This document shows positions 8,810 to 63,748 of a stretch of DNA of 64,000 nt, in pieces. Below the pieces are notes generated by a model. That model had not been told where the DNA came from and made no database searches. It saw only the letters and a program-made list of their open reading frames with translations. Numbering within the stretch: the first letter of the stretch is position 1; every line of letters begins with the position of its first letter. Position numbers and translations under genes: made by a program. This DNA comes from Escherichia phage vB_EcoM_G17, in sequence record MK327931.1; one strand, written 5' to 3'.

Positions 8810-8856
8810 TCGTTCTCTCCTTTAAGTACTGAAATATCTGTACTTCAACATACAGA

Positions 8857-8864: not shown

Positions 8865-8875
8865 TTTTTAAAATG

Positions 8876-9499: not shown

Positions 9500-9519
9500 A
9501 ATGATCTCCTTTCAGATAT

Positions 9520-10368: not shown

Positions 10369-10469
10369 TATATCCTCCATAGATATATTACATTCGTATA
10401 AAGTATGATATTATTTAGTACTGAATAAAATCGCCTTTTTTAAAAGCTTTAAAAAGTGCGATTTTCGGT

Positions 10470-10697: not shown

Positions 10698-10723
10698 TTG
10701 ATCTCCTTGAAATATGCATTATA

Positions 10724-10749
10724 AATGAGGGTAAAAATAAACCCTCATT
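10724..10749 (-). other. Stable hairpin downstream of portal gene (possible weak terminator or processing site)
   Basis: 9-bp inverted repeat aatgagggt/accctcatt (10724-10732 / 10741-10749); not followed by a clean T-run on the minus strand, TATAAT hexamer immediately downstream. Confidence 0.35.
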
Positions 10750-10770
10750 CTTATACATTGTTATTTATGT

Positions 10771-12510: not shown

Positions 12511-12521
12511 TATTTTCGTCC

Positions 12522-40900: not shown

Positions 40901-41926
40901 GATGGTGATAAGGTGATGATTTTCACTCCTGATGGTGAAGATTTTGTGAGATATCAAAATCACACATGGGAAACAATCTTGCGTGTATCTAACATCAAAA
41001 ACAATACAACTCCGATCCTATTCACTGTAAGAAATACAGGTAAGGAAACGATTGAATTGATTGATGAGAGTACTGGTGCAGTTCTCCGTTATGATAACAT
41101 CACTCTTGCACAACAAAATGAGCCAGTACAGCCTCTAGCATTGAACATTGTTCGTGTTAGAACATTTGCTGACCCTGAATTTGTCAAGAATGGTATTAAA
41201 TTGTATGAACAAAATAGAAATTACACCATTGATGTAATTAATTATGATGTTTTCTACGATACTACTTTAAATGGTGGTAAGTACAATGACGGAATAACAC
41301 CAGATGACGTTGACGTTTGGATAATCTCTAATGAAATATTTGATGTTGATGGAATTACTATCGATAACGGTTATAACTTACCAATTACGGGTGCGGGAGT
41401 TCTTAGTGAATTGGCAAGAACTAAAATGACTGATAGTTTAGAAATCAACGTTATCGAATATGATTCAAGTGTTATTCAACCGTTTAGAAATAATGAAGGG
41501 ATATGGGTTTATGGATTCCCAATGGTTGACGGTATGTATATCGGTGTTGTTGGTGGTACTGTTACTAACATCACAACCATTAGTGAAGAAAATACAACCT
41601 ATGTTTCTCAACCTAAATCAATAAGTCCTTATAGTATTAGAAATAATGTTTTATCCGGTTCAGCCGCAAACATGAATGATATTATATCGATTGGATATGA
41701 AAAAGTTGAAGTTAGAAATGCAAATAATTTACTCCGTGGTGTAATGTATAGTGCAGAACATGATTTTAAACTTAATACTACATATTCTTTCAATGGAATT
41801 AATTTAGGTAATTATGATATGTTAAAACGTTACACACAAAATAGTTACACTATAGATCTTTCAGTATACACTGATAGTCTACAAGTTAGTGGTAATGATA
41901 TTAAAAATATATTATTAGTTAAGTAA
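31925..41926 (+). CDS. Giant virion structural protein (3333 aa by ORF track; gp7 position, baseplate wedge or fiber-like)
   Basis: Uninterrupted 10-kb ORF directly downstream of the gp6-like gene. Alternative start ATG 31955 has a GGAG RBS; a near-consensus CATAAATA late box lies at 31911-31918. Asn/Tyr/Thr/Asp-rich, no recognisable catalytic motifs. Confidence 0.7.
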   Translation: MNERIIWSPKMTNNFKFQPTQMAEAVQKKLFIKRLPEWMQGLEDIQKVSDDVIQQWFNPAENELVDGYIGDMGSPAAAGNIFLHESTVARQLYQLSTAYVSKNDDSTIRSIQFYDDLVGYMNHYGALTDNESRLFNGKFYAWTPAINPNKMNNFSSYLWDTKNSYNITSPDYIVMERGALNGNTWSLQNFWYTLGETLEDGSILTEELMQDSRFIRARAPIIEYNKNIELINYGTKFRGTVDLFSDIIKPEDIVQKDINSGIRIDGIIPQDGMRILFTSIGNNGENNRIYNVYVKKMQDGTRVYGLALDPEEETESRPSGEPQDGDVVLITKGNEYGNSSMYWNGSLWVRAQSKTSVNVFPKFQLYDRNGIKLDNSTTYPSSNFKGSELFGFKINYNYATDSVYGYNIELGDYNYYIYENFLQSQRYTYDHLGKEVEIDGLYYYNIIDENNEMNLQTDWVRSEEYSKQFVKQTPQVQRTDMYRVFSTVYDMEVFKEPVDGMYAYVIEVDRTYQYYKADRETYLDWHPITGDGVQIVKYDHTFELAQKVLDNDSDIIEVVVDGVDVSKYTKNVSKGQVQSITLDSTVELDEDSVIQIRTYSSTVTPNKELGAYEVPINLQNNPYNSNIIYINQGDYTLHFQDIIQKNITRGSSDDFNDYEERLAKGLVNNGVGTKIIQNEASMLPLMAHTANEDIDLFEATMFMQSEYFRFINKFNTQMLRMYDENPSDFLQNSAANIVDAILTTINMGRDSSFPFYYDNVGSTSGFIRAFIPPTPQFLGILQAYVPEKATFLTAGSKPSCYNISHTGIISKAYRVINGVDKMDDVVYELENRIFNSIDNKFKDVDYVPVLNSDDLFPTPYFTKTEYSAEEKQTLLLRGYINFTATNGISNSTHDYDPNNWRTWNYTGTYYVVNGQSTEIPARGSWRAIYTDQYGTYRPATHPWEMFGFTQRPTWWNQEYEPTAVQVGERDSDVVYVYEALVMNEQGDLVPSGLWDIDGTIGDSSTGTILFGDRRGQYDKYKRFGVQPFKITKTGNKTSSGIDICVVEYIAPEILGLVSGSLNHRAEPWTYGDMGDMEFTYMNTTLFAYDQMMLLYKAKPAQFANYFWDTRNDNLKEVFTDGSQFLYGDTRKRINFDKNTVVHGENSTRTIGYQMFVSDHLMYQNKNITTKYGDVVRSSYINVGHKIGGFTKADQLTFNAKSFGLISQENQTIGLVRSNNIRDEQMSAIKITWNGSAYQIDGYDLVGAKFKYKLPVKNGRKVTLKLENRNVVHYNEWKSEASIEYGKVFNSYQEVYTFICGYGEYLKEHGWIFEDVNDSGAQQDWNTIAKDFVIWSQNSLVTGEFISCTPSAANAKFGADFGSVQSITQNNGGVWSLLDDNNQGIRQYEIETSRIGNIFTVRTLESNKRIALIRLSLCSYEHAVIFDDKTIFGDYIYQPTYGSIQELIKMYGYITGSWTGRLQAPGFIILEAGTLPSFEKLVSDFQHYYDSETPVSDVQLQELSNHLIGYQSRDYLQRMISSDVSRVDFYKGFIHDKGTNQVLERVLRVSKSYDTDEYKALQEWAFKIGTYGNIDGKKNLQFKLINDQFKQQPQMVSFDVNATSNGNGNHIVYFGEQGKDPRWITRPNGKFSFPMRSGRSENIQLPDIGPVTLDEVSYTTKDFSTAYNDRITYTNGKGENPESVWMFKDGNGLWNIFELVDTNVQMVSITPIENTDVYAEQFCKVTLTDNVPLEDGDYYYFVDETNFMPDTLTVESQYYTAGSDPKVMVVPFDTSIDIEFTDPDTRPRLYRYVSRFASTDDRQAYIDKKYSFKAPQSTLFDRPTTYDERTNITELYLNVYDPINGVIPGAAMQNVTYTSPVDPAQYNSNGELIQAWGADKVGQVWWNTSTAFYLDYTRAIYDADGNVDIDATNEYKRYNWGRLLPHSTIDVLEWVCSPVEPYNWDKYCKDVAKKNKNNTMYLPSGTALEDNYSTFLEYDSSTDSYVTKYYFWVRDTIYVPPLHTRTKSCTDIARIIKDPTQLNIPWFAPINENSFILSNMQFKVNDDTSILTVSYYMDSTEVVKHDQYQLCKEGDSYNFNPLIWDSMWNSLIGQETTESGSVINLLYPDVDNGLGSNKTWFQNVIEARRNFVESANNYYRSQNITTNSVVMEDVFNVKTTEVNPNEVSFRVLSYNNELVIAVESDKFKENDAVILSTSGYLPNPLTSSAVYFIHFDENGYIQLMNSPANAGSVVTITLENKGEGQHKMIKQSDYVESLGTSLDMTQYWSYADWYDVGYDSNTTYTQESSLEDANTKNYQVGDIIRVTDSENIWTLYIKSQSRDSIYWKAIGRENSTVELNDMLYADYSVHNDNGSLSNREINVRKALALLKNSFDLHQSEIVFDMVKYVHVEQSVVDWVFKTSYIYIVGLEQSLVQNYSNDNLINQIVEYFEEVKPYRTKIRSQIEQKTSDDDLIKGLCNDLDPNGYIFVDGSWIKTEKDIWDYEYAQFNEITQKWEQVGSLPSDFVTPNRRFQEIDIIMHYDNIQCKPNEDLASINELVSVNNKYQSNEKDAVSNYELQRYIYSFPEYSEETFDLLIAYQMQIYYPELDVTLGTAYGVNQWYKDHAEDLEATDEFTATLERVYKESTHNDMFTDLRQYVQYNTLANRLKLYKDISDEKIHDEVGCGFSGLTYNDNPSTRLPLGFSSSNDYNYGYFEISSELYQKYISLIKDKNPDASDYEVKVKLEVEYGVYVYRYDEVGGDTRFYTDAIHVLAGMRGLFDKDATDKYEKAEEILSKTPIDIYAITMIPRKYVYLNVNGVYQSIPDEQSIDDFMEDYFITNGEMVELAEINLDDLPLDQNNPMYSDYQYILDSITEAKYFNDMNAFDNLALESQTSSIKWEVKDDEVDPYIVDISDINPSGRDVGQIRFTVDGYGFDNVSLVQLRDNSRYQTEGMAIINPYKHTEAIVSIPSYAKIENDINKTTSKFDEKYFYRVRSINSLTEAEIVDNDLSDGDKVMIFTPDGEDFVRYQNHTWETILRVSNIKNNTTPILFTVRNTGKETIELIDESTGAVLRYDNITLAQQNEPVQPLALNIVRVRTFADPEFVKNGIKLYEQNRNYTIDVINYDVFYDTTLNGGKYNDGITPDDVDVWIISNEIFDVDGITIDNGYNLPITGAGVLSELARTKMTDSLEINVIEYDSSVIQPFRNNEGIWVYGFPMVDGMYIGVVGGTVTNITTISEENTTYVSQPKSISPYSIRNNVLSGSAANMNDIISIGYEKVEVRNANNLLRGVMYSAEHDFKLNTTYSFNGINLGNYDMLKRYTQNSYTIDLSVYTDSLQVSGNDIKNILLVK

Positions 41927-50042: not shown

Positions 50043-51158
50043 ATGACAATTTCATTTAATGGTTCATGTAATAACTCCGGCATCAAAAGTCTAGTTATTA
50101 ATGGTGCTGGGCATTTAATTGTAACCTATGCAGATAACACAATTCAAGATTTAGGTCTTGTTGTAGGACAGAATGGCGAGAATGGTAAAAACTTTTATCC
50201 TAATGAGATTGGTTTTGAAATTCCTTCCGAACAATTTAAAGTTGGTGAACCACTTGGGTGGTGCTACTTAAGCTTGGCTAACAATACCAGTACTCTATAC
50301 TTTAAATCAAATGATGCACAAGATCCGACAAGTACATGGATTAGTGTTGAGTTTGGTAAAGGTGATACGGGTGAAGCGGGTAAGCCGTTCCACATTGATA
50401 GTGCTGGAACTACTTTCCCAACAACTGGTCTTTTTAATAACTATACATTTTATAATACTCAAGATGGTAAACTTTATTTCTATCAAAGTGTAACTGCTAC
50501 TTGGAGTGATGGTATACCTTTCCGTGGTGAACAAGGTCCGCGTGGTCGTTTCCATATTGATAGCAGTGGTGATCAATTTCCAAGTATTGAAAATCTTCCA
50601 GTTGATTATTGTTTTTATAACAACACTGATGGAAAACTATATTATGTTGATGAAGTAACTACAACTACCCCTCCTTCAAAAGAGTGGAGTGATGGTATTC
50701 TATTCCGTGGTAAAGAAGGTCAGCAAGGTATTCAAGGTATACAAGGCGAACCAGGTGCACCAGGTAAAGATACAATTTCTATTAGAAATACCATAGATAG
50801 CTCATGGACTAACGCACTATTAGTTATTGGTACATGTCCTGCTGGATATGTAGTTTCTAATATTGATGTAAACGTTATACAACCTTATTCTCTTCCAGTA
50901 ACTGATATGTTTGTACGTTTTGGTGGTGAAGCACAAGAAGATATTGGCGGGACGGTAATTGCACCAACTTCCTACTTTGATATCAATCGTCAGATGCGTT
51001 TTATTGTTAATGAAACTAATCATGCAGCATCCGATGATGATGAAATTATTTCATGTGTATTCAACGATTCTGTTAACAACAGTCCTTATGGAAAAATGGA
51101 AATTATTTGTACTCTTTCATGGCAAGCTCCTATCCAACCGATTCAAGATAATATTTAA
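50043..51158 (+). CDS. Fiber-like protein with short collagen-like Gly-X-Y runs and an internal ~50-aa duplication
   Basis: ORF track 50007..51158 starts at TTG; ATG 50043 has an AAGGGA RBS. Contains GEQGPRGRF and GKEGQQGIQGIQGEPGAPGKD; repeated unit HIDSxG..FP...YxFYNxxDGKLYxx...WSDGIxFRG occurs twice. Confidence 0.6.
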   Translation: MTISFNGSCNNSGIKSLVINGAGHLIVTYADNTIQDLGLVVGQNGENGKNFYPNEIGFEIPSEQFKVGEPLGWCYLSLANNTSTLYFKSNDAQDPTSTWISVEFGKGDTGEAGKPFHIDSAGTTFPTTGLFNNYTFYNTQDGKLYFYQSVTATWSDGIPFRGEQGPRGRFHIDSSGDQFPSIENLPVDYCFYNNTDGKLYYVDEVTTTTPPSKEWSDGILFRGKEGQQGIQGIQGEPGAPGKDTISIRNTIDSSWTNALLVIGTCPAGYVVSNIDVNVIQPYSLPVTDMFVRFGGEAQEDIGGTVIAPTSYFDINRQMRFIVNETNHAASDDDEIISCVFNDSVNNSPYGKMEIICTLSWQAPIQPIQDNI

Positions 51159-51172: not shown

Positions 51173-53314
51173 ATGGCAGTATTTTCTAATTTTGAAGGAA
51201 CTATGCAGCCCAAATTCATATTGGGGAAAAAAGGTGCTTCAATAAATTTTATCAATGATTCAGTTTCTATAAAAGATTATCTAGGAGAACAGTTCCTACC
51301 ACTGAAGGTAGGAACTTCATCTGACCCTAATTCAGCAGTTAACGTAAAATATCTTGAAGATAACCCTAATGCATTATTTGGTGTTGTACCCCCTACCGAT
51401 GATGTAGGAAAGAACAATAATACGTATTTTCAAATTGATGAAGATGGTATTGTTGATATTTTTGCAAAAAGTAATGGTACATGGGTAAAATCATTATACA
51501 TTAATAAAAAAGTTCTATCCAGTAAAAATGGTGGCGATTTCATCGGACTTATTACTGGAGGTACAGTTCAACAGGCCCAGTTTTATATAACACCAGAAGA
51601 ATTTGGTGCTAAAGGTGATGGCGAAACTGATGACACTGCTGCTGTAAATTTATGTGCTGCTTATGCTAAAGAAAATAAAATCCAAATTCAGGCTGGTGGT
51701 AATTACCGTATCAAAACTGCAATATACCTAGAAGATGTAACTTGGTTTGGGGGAACTATTACTGGTAACGGTGGTACTATGGTATCTGTTATTAATTCCC
51801 AAATACAATTTGCAACACTTACTGGATGTTATTTAAAATTCTTCGGTGGCGATGGTAAGTTTTATTTTAATAAATTTATAAACATCACAAGTACTGCTGC
51901 ATTTTTAATGCAAGGTATGACACAACCAGGAACAATAGATTTTTGCTTTAATGAAATGACCCAATGTAAGTATGGTGTTCTTCAACAAGGTACTGGTGAG
52001 AAAATGAAGGTTGGTAGATATTCATATAACCATATTCATGATATCTATGGTGATGCAATTGAACTAAACGTAATTAACTCACATTATCCTGATGGTTTTG
52101 TGATTGAAGGAAACGTAATTGAAAACGTTGATGGTTCTAACGCTCCAATCCCACTTTCAAACTGGGGCATTGGTATTGGCGTTGCTGGTTCTGGTCCTTA
52201 TGGTTTAGATGCACCAGATACACAATATGTCAGAAACTTTGTTATTAAAAATAACAGACTATATAATGTTAGACAATGTATACACGTTGAATTAGGAATG
52301 GACTTTAAAATACTTAATAATGAAGTTTATCCATCATCTTTAGTTTCTGTTGGTACTGGATTAACCACTGCTGGTGTTATAACTTATGGTTCGAAAGAAT
52401 TCATTATTGATGGGTTGACTGGTCATTTGCTTAATGATCCTTCTATCACAAATAGAATGGTTTCAATAAACTGGGGTGTAACTTCTGGTCGTTTTGCTGG
52501 ACCACCTAGAAACTTTAAAATTTCTAATCTCTATATTCCAGAGTCTTCTATACTTGTTTATACTTCCGGTTCTGATAATTGGTTAAATAATACAGAATTG
52601 AGCAATATCACTTGTTCTAAAATCCTTTGGCGTGGTTTGCCATCATCATCTAAATTTAGTGATATTAGAACTAAAGAATTAGATGTAATTGGTCAACACC
52701 TCTCTACCGAAGGCGAAGGTGGTGGTATCTATACTCGCTCTAAATATACTTATACTAATTGGACTAACTGTGTTGTTCAAGATGATTGTAATGTTTCAAA
52801 ATATAGTTTTTCTAAAATGTATGTAGACAGAATAGACCAATCATCTAATAACTTTAAAGTTACAACTGCAATCGATGGTACAGGTCACCGTGGCCCAGTA
52901 CTGATACCTGTAGTTGAGCAATATTATATTCCATACGATACTTTTCCTGGGGGACGCTATTTCTCTGAAGGCACGATTATTCATAAACAATCGGGTGGAA
53001 AATATATTGTAACTGTTGGTGGTTCTTTTTTCGGAAAATATGACACAATTAGACAAACGGTAGCAGGACAAACATACATAGAAGCATTGGGTGTGTCATG
53101 GGGTGAAAACCAATATGCAAAAGCTGCTGGTACTGAGATCATTATATCCGGTGCTGGTGAAAATGGTGGTGATTTGAGAACGTATATAACTCGTGCAGTG
53201 TATGTTGTAAACAACGTATATAGAATTGATATTGCAGATCCTATCATAACAGCAACTGCCGCTGGTGCAGCATTAAAAGCTGCCCAACCCGTAACTTACA
53301 TAACCCTACCATAA
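51173..53314 (+). CDS. Tail spike with pectate-lyase-like right-handed beta-helix (putative polysaccharide depolymerase)
   Basis: 713-aa ORF; ITPEEFGAKGDGETDDTAAVNLCAAY is the hallmark N-terminal motif of pectate-lyase-superfamily tailspikes; N-terminal ~100 aa (MAVFSNFEGTM..FILGKKGA) are shared with the next gene. Confidence 0.7.
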   Translation: MAVFSNFEGTMQPKFILGKKGASINFINDSVSIKDYLGEQFLPLKVGTSSDPNSAVNVKYLEDNPNALFGVVPPTDDVGKNNNTYFQIDEDGIVDIFAKSNGTWVKSLYINKKVLSSKNGGDFIGLITGGTVQQAQFYITPEEFGAKGDGETDDTAAVNLCAAYAKENKIQIQAGGNYRIKTAIYLEDVTWFGGTITGNGGTMVSVINSQIQFATLTGCYLKFFGGDGKFYFNKFINITSTAAFLMQGMTQPGTIDFCFNEMTQCKYGVLQQGTGEKMKVGRYSYNHIHDIYGDAIELNVINSHYPDGFVIEGNVIENVDGSNAPIPLSNWGIGIGVAGSGPYGLDAPDTQYVRNFVIKNNRLYNVRQCIHVELGMDFKILNNEVYPSSLVSVGTGLTTAGVITYGSKEFIIDGLTGHLLNDPSITNRMVSINWGVTSGRFAGPPRNFKISNLYIPESSILVYTSGSDNWLNNTELSNITCSKILWRGLPSSSKFSDIRTKELDVIGQHLSTEGEGGGIYTRSKYTYTNWTNCVVQDDCNVSKYSFSKMYVDRIDQSSNNFKVTTAIDGTGHRGPVLIPVVEQYYIPYDTFPGGRYFSEGTIIHKQSGGKYIVTVGGSFFGKYDTIRQTVAGQTYIEALGVSWGENQYAKAAGTEIIISGAGENGGDLRTYITRAVYVVNNVYRIDIADPIITATAAGAALKAAQPVTYITLP

Positions 53315-53330
53315 AGGAGATTATATTAAA

Positions 53331-54227
53331 ATGGCAGTTTTTTCTAATTTAGAAGGAACCATGAAGAAGTCCTTCATTCTTGGGAAGAATGGTGCACAGA
53401 TTACCACAAATGGTAGTGTTGTGCAAATTCAAAACTACTCAGGAACACAACTTCTTCCAATTTCAGCAGGTGAACCAACTGCAAACACACACTTGGTTAC
53501 ATTGGGATATTTAAACGCACACAGTGGTGGTGGTAGTTCTGGTATCTTACGTGGAACAACAGCACCATCCGATTCGATCGGTCTAGATGGTGACGTTTAC
53601 TTTTTGGTTGATAGTACTAATGTTCTTCAAATTTATATTAAAGATCTTGGTATTTGGAAACCATTTAAAGGTAGCTCACCTGGGACTGATAGCTCATATG
53701 TAACTACTGAAATAGTTCCTGTTTCTGCATTTACATTAGTGCCAGATACTACTGATCATTATACTTACACACTACCAGAATCAGTTCATGGTAGAGGTTC
53801 TGATATTATGATCCAACTACAAGGTGACCCAGGTAATGTTGCATTGGAATCAGTATTCCAAACCACAGTAACAGTTAGTGGTATTGGGGATATAACAATT
53901 GATGTGATTGGTCAAATCACAGATTATGCAAGTGTTAAAGTAAACATTATAGGAGCAACAACAATGACAGTACCTTATAGTAAATTGGTAAACCAAGCAG
54001 ATTGGGTTTCTAGTGATGGTGATTTTACAATCACTATTCCTGCATCTGAACACAATCAAACACCAGATAATTTGTATATTTCAATTTATGCAAATAAAAC
54101 ACCTGGGAGTGTTTCGTCATCTCCATTTGAATTGGTAGTGACTGATACACAAATTAGTAGTACTGGTGATGTAATCTTCACTTCTGATATTTCTTTCAGT
54201 GGTAAGATTGTCATCTCTGGTAAGTAA
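53331..54227 (+). CDS. Tail fiber/spike protein sharing the N-terminal anchor module with the upstream spike
   Basis: 298-aa ORF; N-terminus MAVFSNLEGTMKKSFILGKNGA and DGDVYFLVDSTNVLQIYIKDLGIWK parallel MAVFSNFEGTMQPKFILGKKGA and DEDGIVDIFAKSNGTWVK of the 51173 gene; C-terminal part unrelated. Confidence 0.6.
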   Translation: MAVFSNLEGTMKKSFILGKNGAQITTNGSVVQIQNYSGTQLLPISAGEPTANTHLVTLGYLNAHSGGGSSGILRGTTAPSDSIGLDGDVYFLVDSTNVLQIYIKDLGIWKPFKGSSPGTDSSYVTTEIVPVSAFTLVPDTTDHYTYTLPESVHGRGSDIMIQLQGDPGNVALESVFQTTVTVSGIGDITIDVIGQITDYASVKVNIIGATTMTVPYSKLVNQADWVSSDGDFTITIPASEHNQTPDNLYISIYANKTPGSVSSSPFELVVTDTQISSTGDVIFTSDISFSGKIVISGK

Positions 54228-54236
54228 AAAAAATTA

Positions 54237-54268
54237 ACCAGACTTGTTCTAAATAAGTCTGGTTTTTA
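54237..54268 (+). terminator. Rho-independent terminator
   Basis: 9-bp stem accagactt/aagtctggt (54237-54263) followed by ttttt. Confidence 0.6.
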
Positions 54269-54365
54269 TTATATTTGCTTTTGTCAAATAACATATTAAT
54301 TGTTGGATAACAGCATAATAAAACTAAATATATACATATTAACAAGGTTATAATGGAGGGTATAA

Positions 54366-57300
54366 ATGTACTCAATAAAAACTGACTTAGATATTACTGG
54401 TGCTGGTACGGTTGGTAAGGATCTTTTAGTCAAAGGAAATGCTGTTTTCAACAATAACCTAACTGTAAATGGTACTGTAACTTTTGCAAATGCAACTTTT
54501 ACTGCCATTGAATCATCAACTGCCAACATTACATCTACTTTAGATGTAGGTGGCAAAGCAACACTTTCTGGTGGTCTTGGTGTTGAGGGTAATACTACAA
54601 TCGGTAGTGCAGTTGTCGGGTCTGATACAGCAACAATTAATTCAAACGCTACCTTTAACGGTACTGTATCAGTTGGTTCTGATTTTACACAAACTGCTGG
54701 TACAACCACTCTACAAGCAACTAAAGTTAAAAACTTAGAAGTTGCTGAAACAACAGCATTTAAAGGTAATATTACTGCTGATGTTGGGACTACTGCTGCA
54801 TTTGATAAAATTACTGCTAATACCGCAGAAATTACTAATGTAAGTACAACAGATATTAGTAGTACTGGTACTGCTACATTTAACGATGTGACAATTAGTG
54901 GTACACTTGGTGGTGAGTTTAATCTATCTGACTTAAATGCAGTAACATTGAACGTTACTGGTGCATCTAACCAACAAGGTGCAGTAACTTTCGGTGCTAA
55001 CGTAACTGGTATTAACAGTACTGCTACTTTTAAAGACATTCGTATTGGTTCTAACTCTGAATCACAAACCTTCAGATTAAGCTTCCCTTACACTGCTCCT
55101 GGTAAACGCCCAACTGTTATTCTACAAAACGAAATTCAGTCCGAGCTAATGTCACCTGCAAACTTGACAGTATTGACCTCTGCTTCTTTTGGTAATGCGT
55201 CATTATCTTCTTATGGTATTACTGGTAATGGTCTAAACAAATTAGATTATCTAACAGTTTCTGGTAACAATACACAATCACCAGACACACCACTATTAGA
55301 AGTTCAAAAAGGAAAAACTAAAGTTGCTGACTTTGAAGTAACCGGAACTGCAACTATTCCAAATATCGAAAGTACTGGTACTGCTAATTTTAATAACATT
55401 AATGTTTCTGGTCTTCTTGGTGGAACGTTCCAACTAGACGATATTAATGCAGTATCTTTGAACGTTACTGGTGTAACTTCATTAGTTGGTGGTGTTACTC
55501 TTGGTTCTAATATTACTGGTTATAACAGTACTGCATCCTTTAAAGCTATCAGCTTAGGTCAAAATAGTCAAGATGCGGCAGTGAAACTAGGTTTTGGATA
55601 TACTGCACCAGGTCAACGCCCAACAGTTATTCTACCTAACGAAGTTCAATCAGAAGTCGTTTCTCCTTCTACATTGAACGTTCTTAAAACAGCAACTTTC
55701 GGTAACGCTTCTCTTTCCACTTATGGTATTACTGGTAACGGTCTAAACAAACTAGATTACCTAACTATTACTGGTAACGAAACACAAGCTCCAGGTACAC
55801 CATTCCTACAAGTTGGTGGTAAAGCAATTCTTAATGATGTTGAATTTACTGGAACAGTAACTGGACTAACTGTTGATGTTAGTGGGCAGGATCTAACACC
55901 TAATTCTGTTGTCGCGGCAGCAAATATTAAAGGTGCAACACTTGAAAGTACTGGTAACACTACCGTGGGTGCTAAACTAACTGTTACTGGTGATATTGCT
56001 GGTACAACTGCAACTCTTTCTGGTGCATTATCCGCTGGTTCAGTAAGTTCTGGTTCTATTACTGGTACAACTTCTGTATCTGCACCAACAATTAGTGCAT
56101 CTACTGAAGTAACGGCCCCTACTATCACTGCGAGTGGAACTGTAAGTGGGCAAACAATTAACGGTACTAATATTAGTGCAACAACTCTGACTGCACCAAC
56201 TATTAGTGGTAATACTAACTTTACAGAAAATGTTGATATTACTGGTAGCTTAACTGTTGGTTCTCTAGACTTGAGCACTACCGATATTAATGCTAAATCA
56301 ATCACTACTACTGCTGGTGCAACTATTGGTGGTGATTTAGTAGTTCAAGGCTCTTTTGATTTATCAGCAGCCGACCTTAATGTTAAATCATTAACTACTT
56401 CTGGTATTGTTAAAAGTAATGATCTTGTTAATGCTAACGTACTTCCAGTACTTAATAGTACTACCATAACGGCAACTACTGTTAATGCTGATGATATAAC
56501 TGTTACCGGATCTGCTAATTTGGGTACAATTTACTCAAGCTCATCTGTTCTAGTTGGGTCAACTTTAACTGTAACTGGTGAAACTACAACTGCATCGTTG
56601 GTTACCCCAACCATTTCAAATGCAAGTGGTGTCACTATTTCCAATAATACAAATGTAACTGGTGACCTAACTGTTACTGGTGCAGTTATTCCAGGCTCTA
56701 TCGATCTAGCAACAACTGATGTTAATGCTAAATCCATTACTACTACTGCTGGTGCAACTATTGGTGGTAACCTAACTGTTAATGGTACAGTAGATCTTAC
56801 TACGGCTGATGTTACTGTCAAATCTTTAACTAGTACTGGTGCAATTGTTAGTAATGAATCCACAATTAGTAGTGTTCTACCTAAACTTCAAAGTACTGAT
56901 GCAACTATTGCAACCCTTGGTTCAACAACTGCAAATATTACTAATTTGAATGTTACTGGTGCATCTACCGTAGCTGACGTAACTTCTTCAGGTAAAGTTA
57001 AAGCAGTTTCTGTAGAAACCCCAACAATTAGTAACGTTGATGGTGTATCTATTTCCAATAATACATCTATTACTGGTGACCTAACAGTTTCTGGTACAGT
57101 AACACCAGGTGCAATTGATTTGAGCACAACTGATGTAAGTGCAAAATCCATTACTACTACCGCTGGAGCAAATATTGGTGGAGATCTTGTTGTTTCTGGT
57201 ACAGTTGATTTAAGTGGTGCTGATGTATCTGTTAAATCTCTAACAAGTACTGGTATTATTACAGTTAGTAGTGCAGAAGGTATCAACGTTCTACCTAAAG

Positions 57301-59891
57301 TTCAAAGTACTGAAGTTACAGTGTCTGCTCTAAATGCAACAAATGCAGTAGTTTCTGGTGATGTTTCAGCAGCAACAGCTTCAATCTCAGGTGCAATTAC
57401 TGGTGGGTCAGCAACACTATCTGGTGTTGGAACTGCTCTAAATGTAACTAATAACGCAACTGTTGGTGGTGTACTTACTGTTGGTTCTATTACTTCAGCG
57501 GCAGAAAATGTATCCATTACTAAAAATACCGCGATTACTGGTAATTTAGCAGTATCTGGAACACTAACTGCGGGTGTTATTGATCTTAGCACAACTGATG
57601 TGTCTGTGAAGACATTAACTTCTCTAGGTGATGCAACCGTTCAAGGTAACTTAACTGTTGATGGTACTATTAACCTAAGTTCTGCAAACATCGTCGGTGT
57701 AACACTAGAAAGTACTGGCTCCACTACCGTAGGTACTGATTTGATACTAACTACTGGTAACATTACAGGTAGTCCATCTATTTCTGGTAACTTAGGTGTA
57801 ACTGGCACTACAACTTTAACTGGTGCAACAACAGTTTCAAATACATTGAATACTGCTGGTAAACTAACAGTTAATGCTGGTGGAATTCAGGTTGTTGCTG
57901 GTGGTATACAAGTTGATTCTGGAACTATTACTGCTTCTAGTGCTAATATTTCTGGTAGCTCAACACTTAATAGTGCTACTGTAACCACTACACTAGGTGT
58001 TACTGGTGCAGCAAGTATGAATGGTGGTTTAACTGCTTCTACATTGGATGTAACAGGTGATAGTACAGTACAAAAACTAACTGTTAAGGGTGTATTTGTT
58101 CCTGAAGGTGGTTTGGACTTATCCGGTGCTGATCTTAGTGTGAATAGCGTAACTGCGGCAACCACATTAAGTGTTACTGGTGCTAGTACTCTAACTGGTG
58201 GTGTTTCCACTTCAACTGTTACTGCATCCGGTAAGGTAACCGCACAAGAACTAAGTACTGGTACATTGGATGTAACCACAAATGGAACTGTTGGTGGAAC
58301 TTTAGGTGTAACTGGTAAAGCAACTGTTGGATCACTAGATTCAGGTGCAATCTCTGCAACATCTGGTACATTTAGTACTACACTAGATGTGACTGGTGCA
58401 GCGACCTTTGGTAATAATGTTAACATTACTGGTACATTAACCCCAGGTGCATTGGATTTAGCTAGTACTGATGTAGTTGCTAACAGTCTTTCTGTAGCTA
58501 CAACTCTACATTCAGATGGCAACGCAACAATTGGTGGCACATTAGGCGTAACTGGTGCAGTATCTGCTCCATCAATCGCTCTTAATGGTGAAGGTGCTGC
58601 GTTAGCAGTTACTAATAACGCAACAATTGGTGGTACATTAGGTGTAACTGGTGCTACAACTTTAGGTTCTCTAACAACCTCTGGTGCAGTTAAAACTGGT
58701 GCTGATGTTATTATCGGTACTAAAATTGGCGATCAACCAGAGACAGTTCAGATTTTCCCTAATACTTACATTGCTGGCTCCTTGCGTGTAGATGGTGGTA
58801 TCAACGCTGATATTGACGTTAGTGGTCAAACAATTGAACCTTATGCAGTTGTTGCGGCGGACACTATTAGTGCAGCGGGTAATATTACTTCTGGTGCAGA
58901 GTTGATTTCCAAATCAGCAACTATTGGTGATGTTGGTTCACAAAACAACAACTTAACAATCAATGGTAACGTAGTTAACAACGGTAACTTTACAGTAACT
59001 GGTCTACTTAACGCAACACTAAACCAAGCAAACTCTGACGTGGCTGTTAAATCATTAACTGCAACCAACAGTGTTGCTGCTGGTACTAGTATTACCGCAG
59101 GTACAAGTATTACTGCAACTGGTCTACTAAAAGGGAACACCCTTGAAGTAACTACTACTGGTTCATTTGGTGGTGCAGTAACAATGTCAAGTGGTGCTAA
59201 CATTACTGGAACCGTTGGAATTACTTCTGGTAACCTAACTGTTGGTGGTGATATTTCTGCAACAGGTACTGCAACCCTAGCAGCAACTTCAGTAACTACC
59301 ATTACTACTTCTGGTGCAGCAACACTTGCTAGTGCATCTGTTACTGGAGCAGCAACAATCGGTGGTACTTTAACTGTTACTGGTTTAATGACTGCAAATG
59401 GTAGTGTTGTTTTAGGTGACGCTGCTGCTGATACATTAACTGTCAATGCAACATCTTCTTTCAAAGAAAATGCAGTATTTGATAAAGATGTAACTGTAAC
59501 TGGTCAATTAACAACTACTAATGCTGACCTAACTACTACAACAGTAACTACTAAAAAATATGATGTTATTCCTAATCAAGTAACTTCTTCTGTTATCGCA
59601 CCAACTGGTACTTGGACCCCAGACGGTACTAGCAACGTATACTTTATCACTCTAGATCAAGATACCACTCTAGCACCAATCACTGGTCTAATCGGTGGTG
59701 GTAAAGCATCTTCAGTATACATTTATGTGAAACAAGATGCAACAGGTAATAGAAACTTTACTACTGATGGTACTTATGCGGTTGTTGATGGCACACTGAA
59801 CAAAACTGCAAACTCTGTAACTATCTACCAAGTCATTTATGACGGTGTGAGTCCAGTAACAGATATGTTTATTGCACAACGTACTGCTTAA
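54366..59891 (+). CDS. Giant repetitive fiber/adhesin-like protein (1841 aa)
   Basis: Single 5.5-kb ORF with GGAGGG RBS; almost entirely Thr/Gly/Ser/Val/Ala/Asn short beta-strand repeats with several long internal tandem duplications (e.g. the ~145-aa unit YTAPGKRPTVILQNEIQSE.../YTAPGQRPTVILPNEVQSE..., and the ~115-aa unit containing DLxTTDVxAKSITTTAGAxIGG three times). Confidence 0.75.
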   Translation: MYSIKTDLDITGAGTVGKDLLVKGNAVFNNNLTVNGTVTFANATFTAIESSTANITSTLDVGGKATLSGGLGVEGNTTIGSAVVGSDTATINSNATFNGTVSVGSDFTQTAGTTTLQATKVKNLEVAETTAFKGNITADVGTTAAFDKITANTAEITNVSTTDISSTGTATFNDVTISGTLGGEFNLSDLNAVTLNVTGASNQQGAVTFGANVTGINSTATFKDIRIGSNSESQTFRLSFPYTAPGKRPTVILQNEIQSELMSPANLTVLTSASFGNASLSSYGITGNGLNKLDYLTVSGNNTQSPDTPLLEVQKGKTKVADFEVTGTATIPNIESTGTANFNNINVSGLLGGTFQLDDINAVSLNVTGVTSLVGGVTLGSNITGYNSTASFKAISLGQNSQDAAVKLGFGYTAPGQRPTVILPNEVQSEVVSPSTLNVLKTATFGNASLSTYGITGNGLNKLDYLTITGNETQAPGTPFLQVGGKAILNDVEFTGTVTGLTVDVSGQDLTPNSVVAAANIKGATLESTGNTTVGAKLTVTGDIAGTTATLSGALSAGSVSSGSITGTTSVSAPTISASTEVTAPTITASGTVSGQTINGTNISATTLTAPTISGNTNFTENVDITGSLTVGSLDLSTTDINAKSITTTAGATIGGDLVVQGSFDLSAADLNVKSLTTSGIVKSNDLVNANVLPVLNSTTITATTVNADDITVTGSANLGTIYSSSSVLVGSTLTVTGETTTASLVTPTISNASGVTISNNTNVTGDLTVTGAVIPGSIDLATTDVNAKSITTTAGATIGGNLTVNGTVDLTTADVTVKSLTSTGAIVSNESTISSVLPKLQSTDATIATLGSTTANITNLNVTGASTVADVTSSGKVKAVSVETPTISNVDGVSISNNTSITGDLTVSGTVTPGAIDLSTTDVSAKSITTTAGANIGGDLVVSGTVDLSGADVSVKSLTSTGIITVSSAEGINVLPKVQSTEVTVSALNATNAVVSGDVSAATASISGAITGGSATLSGVGTALNVTNNATVGGVLTVGSITSAAENVSITKNTAITGNLAVSGTLTAGVIDLSTTDVSVKTLTSLGDATVQGNLTVDGTINLSSANIVGVTLESTGSTTVGTDLILTTGNITGSPSISGNLGVTGTTTLTGATTVSNTLNTAGKLTVNAGGIQVVAGGIQVDSGTITASSANISGSSTLNSATVTTTLGVTGAASMNGGLTASTLDVTGDSTVQKLTVKGVFVPEGGLDLSGADLSVNSVTAATTLSVTGASTLTGGVSTSTVTASGKVTAQELSTGTLDVTTNGTVGGTLGVTGKATVGSLDSGAISATSGTFSTTLDVTGAATFGNNVNITGTLTPGALDLASTDVVANSLSVATTLHSDGNATIGGTLGVTGAVSAPSIALNGEGAALAVTNNATIGGTLGVTGATTLGSLTTSGAVKTGADVIIGTKIGDQPETVQIFPNTYIAGSLRVDGGINADIDVSGQTIEPYAVVAADTISAAGNITSGAELISKSATIGDVGSQNNNLTINGNVVNNGNFTVTGLLNATLNQANSDVAVKSLTATNSVAAGTSITAGTSITATGLLKGNTLEVTTTGSFGGAVTMSSGANITGTVGITSGNLTVGGDISATGTATLAATSVTTITTSGAATLASASVTGAATIGGTLTVTGLMTANGSVVLGDAAADTLTVNATSSFKENAVFDKDVTVTGQLTTTNADLTTTTVTTKKYDVIPNQVTSSVIAPTGTWTPDGTSNVYFITLDQDTTLAPITGLIGGGKASSVYIYVKQDATGNRNFTTDGTYAVVDGTLNKTANSVTIYQVIYDGVSPVTDMFIAQRTA

Positions 59892-59955
59892 TAATTATAA
59901 TAATAAAGGTGTCACTCATTTTGGGTGACACCATCATAACAAGTGAGGTAGTTAT

Positions 59956-60735
59956 ATGTTCACATATGTGAAAGGAAATTCAAAAGAAAATTATGAATTG
60001 GGAAACATTATTTCCAATCCAATTGGTGTAAAAGGACTTAAAGAACGTCCTGGTGCAACACCAGAAGATCCACAAACCTATCGTTATCTTTATAGTGATA
60101 TTAGAACTCTTTATGGTATTTCAAGTAAAGATGGTTCCCCAGTAGAACCTAATGATGCTGTTAGAAAAGAAGAAGGTTTTTGGTGGTTAGTGTATAAAAA
60201 TGTTGGAAATGTTAATGCTATTGAACAACCGTTGGAGTTTATTAAATTAAAAGATGAAAATCAACCTATTGTTGAATTTTTAGAAGACGCTACCGAAGAA
60301 TATAAAGCACTAACTGTTCTTAAAACATATCATTATATTGATATGCCAATAGCAGATGTTAAAGTTGATTTAAAAGCAAGAACTATATCAGAACGTACAA
60401 ATCGTATGAATTCTGGTTATATGTTCAATGGTCATCGTTACAGTACTGATATGTCTGGTCGTCAAATGCTTCTTAATTACTATACACAAGTCACTTCAGG
60501 TTCTGAAAGTGTTTCTATTTTTCTTGATGACGCAATTGTAAAATTATCTGCTACTGAAATGACACAACTATACACTGGAGCCTTTGCTATGATTGAGCAA
60601 TTGTTTACAGAATGTGACAATCAGTGTGCAGCAATTGATGCAGTTGATGATTTAGATCCTGATGCAATTTATAAGGCACAACAAGCTGCAACTTGGGTAT
60701 ATGAAGGTGTTGATATTCCTGAACGTATACGTTAA
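59956..60735 (+). CDS. Hypothetical protein (possibly fiber-associated)
   Basis: 259-aa ORF directly downstream of the giant fiber gene; no motif recognised. Confidence 0.45.
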   Translation: MFTYVKGNSKENYELGNIISNPIGVKGLKERPGATPEDPQTYRYLYSDIRTLYGISSKDGSPVEPNDAVRKEEGFWWLVYKNVGNVNAIEQPLEFIKLKDENQPIVEFLEDATEEYKALTVLKTYHYIDMPIADVKVDLKARTISERTNRMNSGYMFNGHRYSTDMSGRQMLLNYYTQVTSGSESVSIFLDDAIVKLSATEMTQLYTGAFAMIEQLFTECDNQCAAIDAVDDLDPDAIYKAQQAATWVYEGVDIPERIR

Positions 60736-60741
60736 TTTTTT

Positions 60742-60772
60742 AAGGTCAAGCCTATGCTTGGCCTTTTCTTTT
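60742..60772 (+). terminator. Rho-independent terminator
   Basis: 9-bp stem aggtcaagc/gcttggcct (one G-U pair) followed by ttttctttt. Confidence 0.55.
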
Positions 60773-60819
60773 AACTAAAATAAATACATCATATAAATCT
60801 ATTCTGAGGAAATATTTAA

Positions 60820-62784
60820 ATGAGTATAAATCGAATTAGAGGTGATGGTGGTGTAATTATTGATAGTAAATCTTTTTTAGAGTTACCGAAAGCACCATCA
60901 AAAGAAACCGCTGATGTAATAAGATCAGGGATGATTAGATACAATAAGGAATGGAAATCATTTGAAGGTGTTCTGGATTTTGAAGATGGTACTATGGCAT
61001 ATCGCCGCTTTGCAAACTTAGATGCAAATGGTAAACTTCTTACTTCCCAATTACCAGATTCAGTAACTAGTGGTTTACAGTTTGTTGGTACATACAATCC
61101 TATCCCAGATGATATTGATCCACCTTTAGCACAAACACCACTACCAGCACCAGCAGCATCACTAAATGGTGATTATTATGTTGTTCGTGGTATTATGGAT
61201 GCCGCACAAGCCCATTATGAAGCAAATAATCCACAAACAAGTCCTGTTACATTTACACCTACAAATCCAACTGGACAAGGTAATTGGATTGAAATTTTAT
61301 ATTATGTTGACTCTAATCCAAATATATCTGGTGCTAAACTAGTAACATACGCTTTCGCTAGAATTATTCCTGCATCTATTCCTAGTACTGGTCATGATGG
61401 TCTTAAAAATTTAGCAACAGATGCTGACTTAACCAAACCATTTGCTTCAGGTGTTCCAATGAACCAAACCGCACTATCAGATGGTGATTGGATTATTATA
61501 ACTGAAGATAAAAACATACGTCTACGCCAGTCAAGAACAAGCATTTCCGCTGCTTCAGTATTATATGACAATACTGTAATGATTGCAAATCATCGTCAAT
61601 TTAGGACAAACGCAGGGACCGTTCAAACATCCATAGATAACGTTGTGATTGAGTGTTTACGTAGAACTGGTGATTCCATGTATAATGATGGAACAAGCGG
61701 CTCAGGGCGTTTTGGTGTGGTCTATGGTAGTGCAGCAGCACCAGCATTGACATTTAATAACAATCCATTTGATCCAACCAATAACCCAGGTAATGATCCT
61801 GCAAAATGGTCAGACGCTAATACTGGTATGTTTCATCCAGCAGATGATGCAATTGGTTTCAGTACTGCTGGAACTGAACGTATTAGAATTAATAATTCAA
61901 CATTAACATTATACCAAACAACTTCAACCCCAGCATCAACCCCAGTACTAAGATTTGATAATGCAACCAATACTAATGTTGGACTAAGTGCTAGTAGTAA
62001 TATTATTTCATTTAGTTCAATGAATAAAGTACAAGTTGAATTTAAAAATGGTGAAAGTGCGTTTCATGGTAATATTGTGGTTGATGGTACAAGTACATTG
62101 ACTGGTGATACATCAGCTAGTAATATCACTGCTAGTGGTAATTTGAACATTCAAGGTAATACTACATTAGGCGATGCTGCATCTGATACAATTACAGTTA
62201 ATGGAGTTAGTACGTTTACAGCAAACACTAATTTCAATGGAACAACTAATAAATTTAAAAATATAAATCTATTAGCTAATGGTATAATTACATTAGAAAG
62301 TACTACTAATCAAAGTACAATCCAATTAGTTAGTTCTGATTTAAAACTATCAATGGGTAATTATGCTGATGTAAGTATCTATGATAATGGAACTATAAGA
62401 ACACGTTTTAATAGATATGGTATCCAATTACCAGTACTAGCTACTATTGATAACTCTGTTGGCGTTGATGGTATGATTGCATACTCCAATACCGAGCGTA
62501 CTTCAATGCAAAAAGTTCAAGGTCAATGGGTTCCAATTGGTTCAGGTTCAGTGAGAACCGATGCTTTTACAATTTCATCTTGGGTATTAAGTGGTAACTA
62601 CTACACCCTTACTGTAACAGCCTCAAACATCGTCACAGCAGAGATACAGGAACAGGTTAGTCCTGGTGTCTATACTCGTGTTGAGGTCGATAGCGTTACG
62701 TTTAACGGCACTAACGTAGTGTTTAGTATACCTTCAACTCCTGATGTACGTTTCGACGGAAGAACATTGGTAACAATTAGATAA
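60820..62784 (+). CDS. Tail fiber protein
   Basis: 654-aa ORF with GAGGAAA RBS; C-terminal half contains Thr/Gly/Asn beta-strand repeats similar to those of the 1841-aa protein (NIVVDGTSTLTGDTSASNITASGNLNIQGNTTLGDAASDTITVNG). Confidence 0.6.
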   Translation: MSINRIRGDGGVIIDSKSFLELPKAPSKETADVIRSGMIRYNKEWKSFEGVLDFEDGTMAYRRFANLDANGKLLTSQLPDSVTSGLQFVGTYNPIPDDIDPPLAQTPLPAPAASLNGDYYVVRGIMDAAQAHYEANNPQTSPVTFTPTNPTGQGNWIEILYYVDSNPNISGAKLVTYAFARIIPASIPSTGHDGLKNLATDADLTKPFASGVPMNQTALSDGDWIIITEDKNIRLRQSRTSISAASVLYDNTVMIANHRQFRTNAGTVQTSIDNVVIECLRRTGDSMYNDGTSGSGRFGVVYGSAAAPALTFNNNPFDPTNNPGNDPAKWSDANTGMFHPADDAIGFSTAGTERIRINNSTLTLYQTTSTPASTPVLRFDNATNTNVGLSASSNIISFSSMNKVQVEFKNGESAFHGNIVVDGTSTLTGDTSASNITASGNLNIQGNTTLGDAASDTITVNGVSTFTANTNFNGTTNKFKNINLLANGIITLESTTNQSTIQLVSSDLKLSMGNYADVSIYDNGTIRTRFNRYGIQLPVLATIDNSVGVDGMIAYSNTERTSMQKVQGQWVPIGSGSVRTDAFTISSWVLSGNYYTLTVTASNIVTAEIQEQVSPGVYTRVEVDSVTFNGTNVVFSIPSTPDVRFDGRTLVTIR

Positions 62785-62785
62785 T

Positions 62786-62817
62786 AAAAAAGGGAGAACT
62801 GATGTTCTCCCTTTTCG
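62786..62817. terminator. Bidirectional rho-independent terminator between fiber gene and thymidylate synthase gene
   Basis: A-run, 8-bp stem gggagaac/gttctccc (62792-62811), T-run. Confidence 0.65.
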
Positions 62818-62818: not shown

Positions 62819-63748
62819 TTATACAGCCATAGGTGCTTTAATTGTTGGCATTGGGTTGTAATTCACTAATTTAAAAGAATCCATAGTGAAATCTTCAATA
62901 TTAGTAATTGTAGGATCAAGCCACAATTCAGGTAATTCACGAGGTTTTCGCTGTAGTTGTTCTTTTACTTGTTCAACGTGGTTTTTATAAATGTGACAAT
63001 CACCACCATTCCAAATAAATTCACCAACATCTAAACCAGTAATTTGTGCAATCATATGAGTTAGTAGTGAGTAACTACTGATATTAAATGGAACTCCTAA
63101 AAATAGATCAGCGGAGCGTTGATGCAGAATACAGCTTAGTTTTCCTTGCACTACACAAAATTGCACAAAGCTATGACAAGGTGGTAACGTCATATCATCA
63201 AGCTCACCAACGTTCCATGCACTTAGAATGTGGCGACGGCCATATGGATCGGACTTTATACCTTTGATTAGTTCTTGTAATTGGTCAGTTGTACGTTTCA
63301 TAACAACACCATGTGAACCAGTATAATCGATAACTTTGTATCCTTTATCTTTTAATTCTTGAATTTCTTCAGTACTGGAACTAAATTTATAATCTTCCCA
63401 TTCACGCCATTGCTTACCATACACTGGACCTAACTCACCATCAGTATAACCAAGAGCAACGCCTTGATTTAGGTAATTATCTGTCCAAATAGTTTTCTTT
63501 TCTGTATCACGAGTTCCATGCAAAATTTCACAAAGGCGACGCTCATCATGGGAACCTTCAATAAACCATAGTAATTCTGAAGTCATTGCTTTCCAAGCTA
63601 GACGTTTTGTCGTCACTGCTGGGAAACCATCTTTAAGGTCAAAACGCATTTGTTGACCGATAAGTTTGATTGTTCCAACACCAGTACGGTCAACGCTTTC
63701 TACGCCTTCATCTAGAATTTTTTGATATAGTTCTTGTAGTTGTTTCAT
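62819..63748 (-). CDS. td: Thymidylate synthase (ThyA/Td type), uninterrupted
   Basis: 309-aa ORF with hallmark blocks GPVYGKQWR, RRHILSAWNVGELDDMTLPPCHSFVQF (catalytic Cys), SCILHQRSADLFLGVPFNISSYSLLTHMIAQ, and C-terminal IKAPMAV. Confidence 0.95.
   Translation of the reverse strand: MKQLQELYQKILDEGVESVDRTGVGTIKLIGQQMRFDLKDGFPAVTTKRLAWKAMTSELLWFIEGSHDERRLCEILHGTRDTEKKTIWTDNYLNQGVALGYTDGELGPVYGKQWREWEDYKFSSSTEEIQELKDKGYKVIDYTGSHGVVMKRTTDQLQELIKGIKSDPYGRRHILSAWNVGELDDMTLPPCHSFVQFCVVQGKLSCILHQRSADLFLGVPFNISSYSLLTHMIAQITGLDVGEFIWNGGDCHIYKNHVEQVKEQLQRKPRELPELWLDPTITNIEDFTMDSFKLVNYNPMPTIKAPMAV

Follow-up and report, generated by a model that had tools for sequence, protein, structure and literature searches.

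We examined a block of tail genes at positions 51173-62784 of a 64,000-nucleotide (nt) stretch of DNA from Escherichia phage vB_EcoM_G17 (MK327931.1), hereafter the window. The block comprises the host-recognition and tail-fibre genes of a published, annotated jumbo phage (121Q gp574-gp569), and is a sound, if unremarkable, case of modular receptor-binding genes in phages; genes, families and architecture of this kind are already known (PMC6872550, PMC10253068). Its first open reading frame (ORF) encodes a protein of 713 amino acids (aa) that is by homology a colanidase, and that shares an N-terminal module with the neighbouring 298-aa protein. The first ~65 aa of this module are supported as a portable attachment plug. 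The four ORFs of the original prediction (51173-53314, 53331-54227, 54366-59891 and 60820-62784) were found as described, alongside a 259-aa ORF (59956-60735) that it had not mentioned, and its statement that several receptor-binding-type proteins are encoded together holds.

The colanidase and the shared N-terminal module

The two module-bearing genes and their parts are as follows.

51173-53314, + strand: colanidase gene (gp573), 713-aa ORF
51173-51457, + strand: N-terminal module of the colanidase, residues 1-95, with likeness to the 298-aa protein up to about residue 105
51458-53314, + strand: predicted colanidase body, residues 96-713, right-handed beta-helix tailspike domain
51602-51637, + strand: FGAKGDGETDDT motif, residues 144-155 of the 713-aa protein
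53331-54227, + strand: gp572 homologue, 298-aa ORF, with the module (53331-53666) and two predicted beta-sandwich domains

Residues 96-712 of the 713-aa protein matched gp150 of phage phi92 (Justusliebigvirus; PDB 6E0V/6E0W) with an E value of 1.8e-235, at 57% identity over 617 aa that span the whole beta-helix body and the C-terminal part. The likeness begins at residue 96, the N-terminal parts being unrelated (95 aa here, 188 aa in gp150), and the point of exchange between module and body lies at residue 96 here and at residue 189 in gp150. Both proteins contain the cap motif GDG(x)TDDT and match the WcaM-like family, whereas their genomes differ in kind, phi92 being a 148-kb myophage and the present phage a 350-kb jumbo phage. 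We additionally identified a full-length match to PHROG 6117, 'colanic acid degradation' (E 3e-264), and a partial match to WcaM, in agreement with a precomputed assignment to Pfam PF27800 WcaM. According to PMC13450770, phi92 gp150 degrades colanic acid by hydrolysis of the beta-1,4 linkage between glucose and fucose, an activity known for gp150 only.

By homology, the 713-aa protein is a colanidase with a pectate-lyase-like fold, and a predicted hydrolase. It had been proposed to be a pectate-lyase-type depolymerase on the strength of its FGAKGDGETDDT hallmark; the hallmark is present, and both the fold and the membership of an exopolysaccharide-degrading family stand, but a lyase mechanism was rejected, as the closest characterised homologue, phi92 gp150, is reported to be a hydrolase. 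Of the accompanying idea of a capsule or exopolysaccharide receptor, the link to exopolysaccharide stands, the family having a member with proven exopolysaccharide-degrading activity, but colanic acid is more aptly regarded as a barrier than as an established receptor.

The colanidase body was found in 255 phage records from many genera, including myophages, podophages and jumbo phages, which points to a widely exchanged module. The complete gene was seen only in Asteriusvirus, inserted between two genes that are adjacent elsewhere, and the syntenic blocks of CBB and fENko-Kae01 are without it; it is thus an Asteriusvirus-specific insertion. We infer that it arose when the module was duplicated and joined to a horizontally acquired body. 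In phage JP4, an in-frame deletion between GDGE and GAGE microhomologies has removed residues 152-659, the whole beta-helix, leaving the N-terminal module and the last 54 residues in frame (JP4 stretch 10674-11279). Separately, the colanidase is annotated as two ORFs in vB_Ec-M-J (stretch 7001-9143; 360 and 351 aa) and JNE01 (stretch 1501-3643; 141 and 588 aa), which indicates frameshifts or sequencing errors.

The N-termini of the 713-aa and 298-aa proteins aligned in BLASTP with composition adjustment at E 2e-19 and 37.6% identity over 109 aa, and the first 73 nt of both genes, including 8 nt before the ATG, are 75% identical in DNA. A profile of the module, searched against the six-frame translation of the window, matched these two genes only. 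The composition-adjusted alignment and the window-specific profile led us to reject a low-complexity coincidence, and the ~105 aa shared by the two N-termini are homologous, as the original prediction had supposed. Using tblastn with residues 1-114, we identified two module-bearing places in each Asteriusvirus genome, and a single copy in each of RaK2, K64-1, CBB, GAP32, Serratia BF, Yersinia fHe-Yen9, Salmonella Munch and 7t3, Xanthomonas XaC1, Erwinia phages and fENko-Kae01. The 298-aa gene is itself single-copy and conserved across related jumbo phages, and its product, a small virion protein, has 73 full-length relatives of nearly constant size. With one module copy in each related genome, and relatives of such constant size, the 298-aa gene is the original carrier of the module.

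When the profile was searched exhaustively with HMMER, the module resolved into two parts. Positions ~66-110 correspond to a generic fibre motif of ~40 aa that occurs many times in hundreds of long proteins, whereas positions 1-68 were found at the extreme N-terminus only, on proteins with different distal parts. These include two beta-helix proteins, one of 780 aa with a Peptidase_S74 chaperone domain and one of 705 aa, whose first 62-66 residues are 34-50% identical to the proteins of the window, as well as BNR-propeller proteins of 1204-1366 aa with CBM5/12. A word-indexed protein search with the same profile returned nine short proteins, and the fusions emerged from the exhaustive search. 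Since the same ~65 aa head different distal domains in unrelated phage contigs, these results support the reading of this segment as a portable attachment plug or anchor, and they are the chief backing for the original prediction.

The 780-aa and 705-aa proteins lie 6 kb apart on one 120-kb metagenomic phage contig. Between these two plug-bearing tailspikes lie proteins of 902, 199 and 919 aa without the plug (contig stretch 8001-18343). This has the look of a cluster of several spikes, on a phage contig well below the size of a jumbo genome. Stand-alone module proteins of 111-115 aa were also identified, in several metagenomic contigs and in RaK2 (RaK2 stretch 6001-6348), where the module is a 115-aa ORF (ORF061) between the gp574 and gp569 homologues; such a protein may be a truncated placeholder for the socket. 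The family PF27114 'Phage_tail_beta' is precomputed on two plug-bearing proteins; it is not listed for the colanidase or the 298-aa protein of the window, and no link to the plug was made.

An AlphaFold2 model of the 298-aa protein (predicted local distance difference test score, pLDDT, 81.8) shows the module followed by two small beta-sandwich domains. Fold searches with this model gave weak matches only; a structure search of BFVD returned orthologues and weak collagen-like or fibre proteins, and searches of PDB sequences, with the protein alone or as a profile of 44 sequences, gave no meaningful match. As modelled, the protein does not look like a spike. The proposal of two spikes sharing an anchor therefore survives in its homologous module and portable ~65-aa plug, but not in the second spike.

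The long tail fibre, its putative chaperone and the 654-aa protein

Downstream of the module-bearing genes, we identified the following features.

54366-59891, + strand: long tail fibre gene (gp571), 1841-aa ORF, 5526 nt
54828-55847, + strand: fibre repeat A, residues 155-324 and 325-494, two units of ~170 aa with 59% aa and 66% DNA identity
56199-57935, + strand: fibre repeat B, residues 612-756, 757-894, 895-1032 and ~1050-1190, three to four units of ~138-145 aa
58002-58679, + strand: fibre repeat C, residues 1213-1325 and 1326-1438, two units of ~113 aa with 43% aa identity
59334-59879, + strand: fibre C-terminal domain, residues 1657-1838, aligning with residues 612-792 of the phiTE fibre
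59956-60735, + strand: gp570 homologue, 259-aa ORF with DUF4376
60820-62784, + strand: gp569 homologue, 654-aa ORF

The 1841-aa protein is rich in T, G, S, V and A (62% of residues) and matches PHROG 4549 'tail fiber protein'. It aligned with chain g of PDB 9CUY, the 793-aa 'putative tail fiber protein' of phage phiTE (Certrevirus), with an E value of 4.4e-30, through a shaft segment (residues 380-606) and a C-terminal one (residues 1657-1838). We take this chain to be the phiTE long tail fibre, although the phiTE paper leaves that identity unstated. The paper describes the long tail fibre as trimeric, with an extended beta-helix, and predicts it to be 512 Å (51.2 nm) long; simple scaling from it would give the 1841-aa fibre a length of ~100-120 nm. 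The two fibres have homologous shaft segments and C-terminal domains, but the first ~170-200 residues of the phiTE fibre, which is anchored by an N-terminal helical bundle (modelled residues 14-171), have no match here, and alignments begin at chain residue 205. The window fibre instead starts directly with beta-rich repeats and is 2.3 times longer through its internal repeats. Its C-terminal domain, which is 99-100% conserved among the window phage, JP4 and UB, is the probable distal tip.

The fibre gene had been described as built from long tandem repeats at the DNA level and as a likely hotspot for recombinational length variation. The repeats are real, but old and diverged. Units are 55-67% identical in DNA when aligned globally, with best ungapped stretches of 73-80%; the repeat B units share 45-65% of their amino acids in local alignments; and the longest exact direct repeat in the gene is 30 nt (at 56304 and 56739, in repeat B). 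Tandem Repeats Finder returned only short arrays in the block, and no long-period repeat. The near-identical DNA units of recombination-prone tandem-repeat genes were thus not found in the 1841-aa gene, although the copy-number differences between close relatives that mark such genes were. In JP4 (2129 aa), the fibre has gained a third C unit and, through an insertion of exactly 170 aa, a third A unit with 86% identity to the one beside it; in UB (1959 aa) there is likewise a third C unit, which in both phages adds 112 aa at 88% identity to its neighbour. The fibres of these two, somewhat more distant relatives are 91-100% identical to that of the present phage in 100-residue windows, and the 1959-aa and 2129-aa fibres adjoin colanidase genes of identical protein sequence. 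Asteriusviruses further removed have several fibre genes at the locus: two in JNE01 (1628 and 2120 aa) and three in vB_Ec-M-J (1049, 582 and 1988 aa). In contrast, the gene is 5526 nt long in three annotated records (121Q, SHEFM2K and ELP-22), and ten near-identical genomes align across the whole block in one piece without insertions or deletions, their total lengths agreeing within two bases. The hotspot is therefore true on an evolutionary scale, through the whole-unit variation of JP4 and UB, while the diverged repeats of the window give no support for an ongoing process.

Directly 3' of the fibre gene, after a gap of 64 nt with no terminator, lies the 259-aa gene, whose product contains DUF4376 (Pfam PF14301; 34.5 bits against a cut-off of 25, and also precomputed). 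DUF4376 proteins are fibre chaperones or 'caps' in the Alteromonas phages V22 and A5 (PMC10579305) and putative chaperones in Campylobacter phages; a requirement for fibre folding or function has been shown for V22 only. As in V22 gp27, A5 gp9 and Campylobacter F341_034, DUF4376 here occupies the C-terminal half of a protein encoded directly downstream of a fibre, and the 259-aa protein is a predicted tail-fibre chaperone. It differs from these in that purified virions of CBB (68.5% coverage) and fENko-Kae01 contain its orthologues in abundance, so that the chaperone is possibly retained on the fibre in the virion rather than acting only transiently.

The 654-aa protein has a conserved N-terminal two-thirds, a variable C-terminus and a C-terminal beta-sandwich, with a short fibre-like repeat region at about residues 411-475 that shows weak local likeness to the long fibre. 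Among its 114 homologues, which are 491-1101 aa long, some share only the first 52-75%, and RaK2 ORF060 matches residues 1-339 and 527-653. Its AlphaFold2 model is mediocre (pLDDT 70), and the best Foldseek match, to the C-terminus of T4 gp34, was not significant (E 0.014). The CBB orthologue, CBB_224, is a virion protein. The label of a further fibre, given to it by the original prediction, is a reasonable one for a putative fibre, and the protein is probably a second receptor-binding protein or short fibre.

Gene order, predicted units and virion proteins

The window belongs, by its sequence, to an Asteriusvirus jumbo myophage of the 121Q/Sharanji type. Positions 51173-62784 are 100% identical over their full length to Escherichia phage Sharanji, identical to 121Q save for one base of length, and 98.3-99.9% identical to eight further Asteriusvirus genomes. 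In 121Q, gp573 is labelled 'colanic acid degradation', gp571 'tail fiber protein', and gp572, gp570 and gp569 'structural protein', with gp574 ('tail protein') upstream and thymidylate synthase downstream; SHEFM2K carries the same annotation of the block. The following features delimit its predicted units.

50043-51158, + strand: gp574 homologue, 371 aa when counted from the start codon (ATG) of the 121Q annotation, in an ORF that a TTG at 50007 opens
54236-54264, + strand: intrinsic-terminator-like hairpin that would close the gp574-gp573-gp572 unit (-15.6 kcal/mol, z -5.7)
60742-60765, + strand: terminator-like hairpin that would close the fibre-chaperone unit (-14 kcal/mol, z -3.7)
62787-62816, strand not assigned: hairpin with flanking A and T runs in the interval where gp569 and the thymidylate synthase gene converge (-19 kcal/mol, z -6.2)

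All three hairpins were far stabler than shuffled controls in RNA folding, and their positions as predicted boundaries divide the block into three units: gp574-colanidase-gp572, fibre-chaperone, and gp569. Accessory genes of relatives sit in the gaps between these units. ELP-22 and UB, for example, have an extra fibre gene (578 and 455 aa, respectively; ELP-22 stretch 11119-12855, UB stretch 12970-14337) between the chaperone and gp569, at window positions 60736-60819; both consist of repeats of ~41 aa, and the difference of 123 aa between them corresponds to about three repeat units.

The gp574 homologue, which adjoins the module-bearing genes upstream, contains two collagen-like G-X-Y stretches, although its match to Pfam Collagen was below threshold. 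CBB_228, ENKO_257c and RaK2 ORF062 are its counterparts at 57-69% identity, its PHROG is 13565, 'tail protein' (E 2.8e-220), and the related jumbo phages that we examined have all conserved it. Further Pfam matches (Bactofilin, Hema_HEFG, RodZ_C, End_N_terminal and DUF722) were likewise below threshold and, together with Collagen, were set aside as noise or an effect of composition. Searches of PDB sequences with the gp574, DUF4376, 654-aa and 3333-aa proteins gave no meaningful match.

The same gene order beside thymidylate synthase was identified in CBB, GAP32 (Mimasvirus) and fENko-Kae01 (CBB_228-224, ENKO_257c-252c), with orthologues of gp574, gp572, gp571, gp570 and gp569 that are 30-60% identical. 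In contrast to the window phage, these have one module copy, no colanidase, and shorter fibres (1553 and 1560 aa). RaK2 (Alcyoneusvirus) retains gp574 (ORF062), the module (ORF061) and the N-terminal half of gp569 (ORF060) at the same locus, but differs in that its module stands alone and a homologue of the long fibre is lacking. RaK2 and phiK64-1 (Alcyoneusvirus) have many tail fibre proteins, mostly depolymerases, in one adsorption apparatus (PMC10253068). The nine to ten fibre and depolymerase proteins of RaK2 (gp098, gp526-534) are encoded by genes different from those of this block, and their CBA120-like head and XD domains were not detected in it.

Many products of these loci are virion proteins. 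Mass spectrometry of virions has detected CBB_224-228 and ENKO_254c-257c. Virion proteins of the gp574 type are known from CBB, phAPEC6 (gp253) and fENko-Kae01, and long-fibre orthologues from all three (CBB_226; phAPEC6 gp256, 180 kDa; ENKO_255c). We infer that the colanidase is likewise part of the virion. The phAPEC6 record (MK817115, stretch 1501-13111) has no annotated coding sequence for the colanidase, 298-, 259- and 654-aa genes, while its DNA is 99.6% identical; the locus tags gp254, 255, 257 and 258 are skipped, suggesting that these genes were dropped on submission.

Upstream of the block, the window encodes baseplate proteins: a gp5-like hub with lysozyme, a gp25-like protein, a T4 gp15-like sheath stabiliser, and a 1153-aa protein whose size fits the 131-kDa 'baseplate wedge' of phAPEC6. 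Immediately past these genes lies an ORF of 3333 aa (31925-41926, + strand) with no Pfam family, whose homologues phAPEC6 gp245 (382 kDa) and CBB_236 are virion proteins; it may encode a giant baseplate or fibre-network protein and is a candidate docking platform. Downstream, homologues of the thymidylate synthase (62819-63748, - strand) have been detected by mass spectrometry in purified virions (phAPEC6 gp259c and fENko-Kae01 ENKO_251), which is unexpected for a metabolic enzyme.

Proposed mechanism and alternative explanations

We consider it probable, for the model taken as a whole, that the block specifies host recognition through a plug-docked colanidase and gp572, a long fibre with its chaperone, and a second receptor-binding protein. 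In this model the Asteriusvirus lineage would have duplicated the module and fused it to the acquired colanidase body, and the first ~65 aa would act as a plug by which trimers of the 713-aa protein and of the 298-aa protein are seated on one kind of socket close to the baseplate, for which the upstream gp574-like protein is the best candidate. The colanidase would clear the colanic-acid slime that is overproduced by mucoid phage-resistant E. coli, allowing the tail to reach the outer membrane. The 1841-aa protein would form a trimeric, beta-helical long fibre of ~100-120 nm, folded with the help of the DUF4376 chaperone, and make the first, reversible contact, possibly with the flagellum, while the 654-aa protein would serve as a second receptor-binding protein.

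A flagellar contact is suggested by relatives. fENko-Kae01 requires flagella for adsorption, and its authors report one long tail fibre gene, ENKO_255c, which is an orthologue of the 1841-aa fibre; the flagellum is thus a plausible first receptor of the long fibre. Similarly, phiTE, whose fibre protein is homologous, is flagellotropic, and SHEFM2K is cited as suggesting that flagellar structures serve it as potential receptors.

Several points weigh against this model. Docking by the module is a prediction from sequence comparison, to which the second half of the module (~66-110), being a very common fibre motif, contributes nothing. Searches of gp574-gp569 against Pfam, PHROGs, PDB sequences and profiles, and folds gave no T4 gp10-like or other known branching domain, though a very remote one could escape this level of search. 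The colanidase, 298-, 259- and 654-aa proteins are absent from the virion table of phAPEC6. JP4 is a viable phage in spite of its deleted beta-helix, indicating that the colanidase is dispensable on some hosts. Finally, the link to the flagellum is one of relatedness only, through a fibre 34% identical to that of fENko-Kae01.

The branched apparatus that had been suggested finds no support in the block. In the anchor-branch systems (CBA120 TSP1-4, G7C gp63.1/gp66 and the KP32 type; Latka et al. 2019, PMC6872550), conserved N-termini are combined with exchangeable enzymatic domains, and here too at least two receptor-binding proteins (713 and 298 aa) share a conserved N-terminal element and differ in their distal domains. 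Our searches, however, found the T4 gp10-like branching domain that defines those systems in none of the block's proteins. The modular-anchor reading itself is supported.

The 1841-aa protein could alternatively be the ~120-nm hair-like 'whisker' on the tail and head of phAPEC6, CBB and fEgEco12, rather than a baseplate fibre, a possibility that we hold tentatively and as a minority view. By electron microscopy, the baseplate fibres of CBB are short (28.6 nm) and its hairs measure 119 +/- 10 nm; scaling from phiTE, with the 793-aa chain taken as the long tail fibre, yields ~119 nm for 1841 aa and ~100 nm for CBB_226. The long-fibre gene occurs in all three phages with reported hairs, whereas RaK2 lacks this gene at the locus, CBB_226 has no homologue in RaK2, and descriptions of whiskers were lacking for other Rak2-like phages; moreover, the authors of the CBB study left the hairs without a gene assignment. 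Against this, GAP32 has a fibre orthologue and no reported hairs, and it is a phage in which the CBB authors did not expect to find the hair genes. fENko-Kae01 also has the fibre gene, and its paper mentions no hairs. The hairs of phAPEC6, finally, form three rings on the sheath and also occur on the capsid, whereas the fibre gene sits in a block of baseplate and fibre genes.

Doubtful in our view is the alternative that the colanidase is a soluble enzyme, freed at lysis, that strips the slime of neighbouring cells, with its N-terminal module a relic of the duplication. It would explain why the colanidase is missing from the phAPEC6 virion list while its neighbours gp253 and gp256 are listed, why the 121Q annotation calls gp572, gp570 and gp569, but not gp573, 'structural', and why JP4 could lose the beta-helix; the idea of a soluble depolymerase has also been put forward for other phages (PMC6872550). 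However, the module is well kept: in 16 of the listed genomes its 114 aa are 100% identical, and it is 67-78% identical in diverged Asteriusviruses (where the colanidase body is 84-89% identical), and JP4 retains it in frame with the last 54 aa. The same N-terminal element heads other tailspike-type proteins elsewhere, and phi92 gp150 is treated as a tailspike both in the phi92 record and in the phi92 structural study.

It is very unlikely that the shared N-terminus is instead an oligomerisation or folding cap, with attachment by other parts or by none, as the module lies at the extreme N-terminus and is exchanged exactly at the junction with the body, is kept at this locus, both in RaK2 and in metagenomic contigs, as a stand-alone protein of 111-115 aa, and has the features of the N-terminal anchors or 'conserved peptides' of other phages with multiple receptor-binding proteins (PMC6872550).

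The reading with some novelty is that the fibre may be both whisker and flagellum-binding organelle, and that the colanidase and the 298-aa protein would compete for one baseplate socket through their common plug. We regard this combination as unlikely; if true, socket competition would yield virions with mixed, swappable distal domains.

These results leave the general picture of modular phage adsorption organs unchanged, and their value is practical. They name a concrete candidate for the tail 'whisker' protein and the flagellum-binding protein of these phages, and explain the differences in this block among near-identical Asteriusviruses through deletion of the colanidase, the number of fibre repeats and extra fibre genes. 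They also provide domain boundaries for engineering and swapping in jumbo coliphages, with the plug at residues 1-65 and the junction at 95/96.

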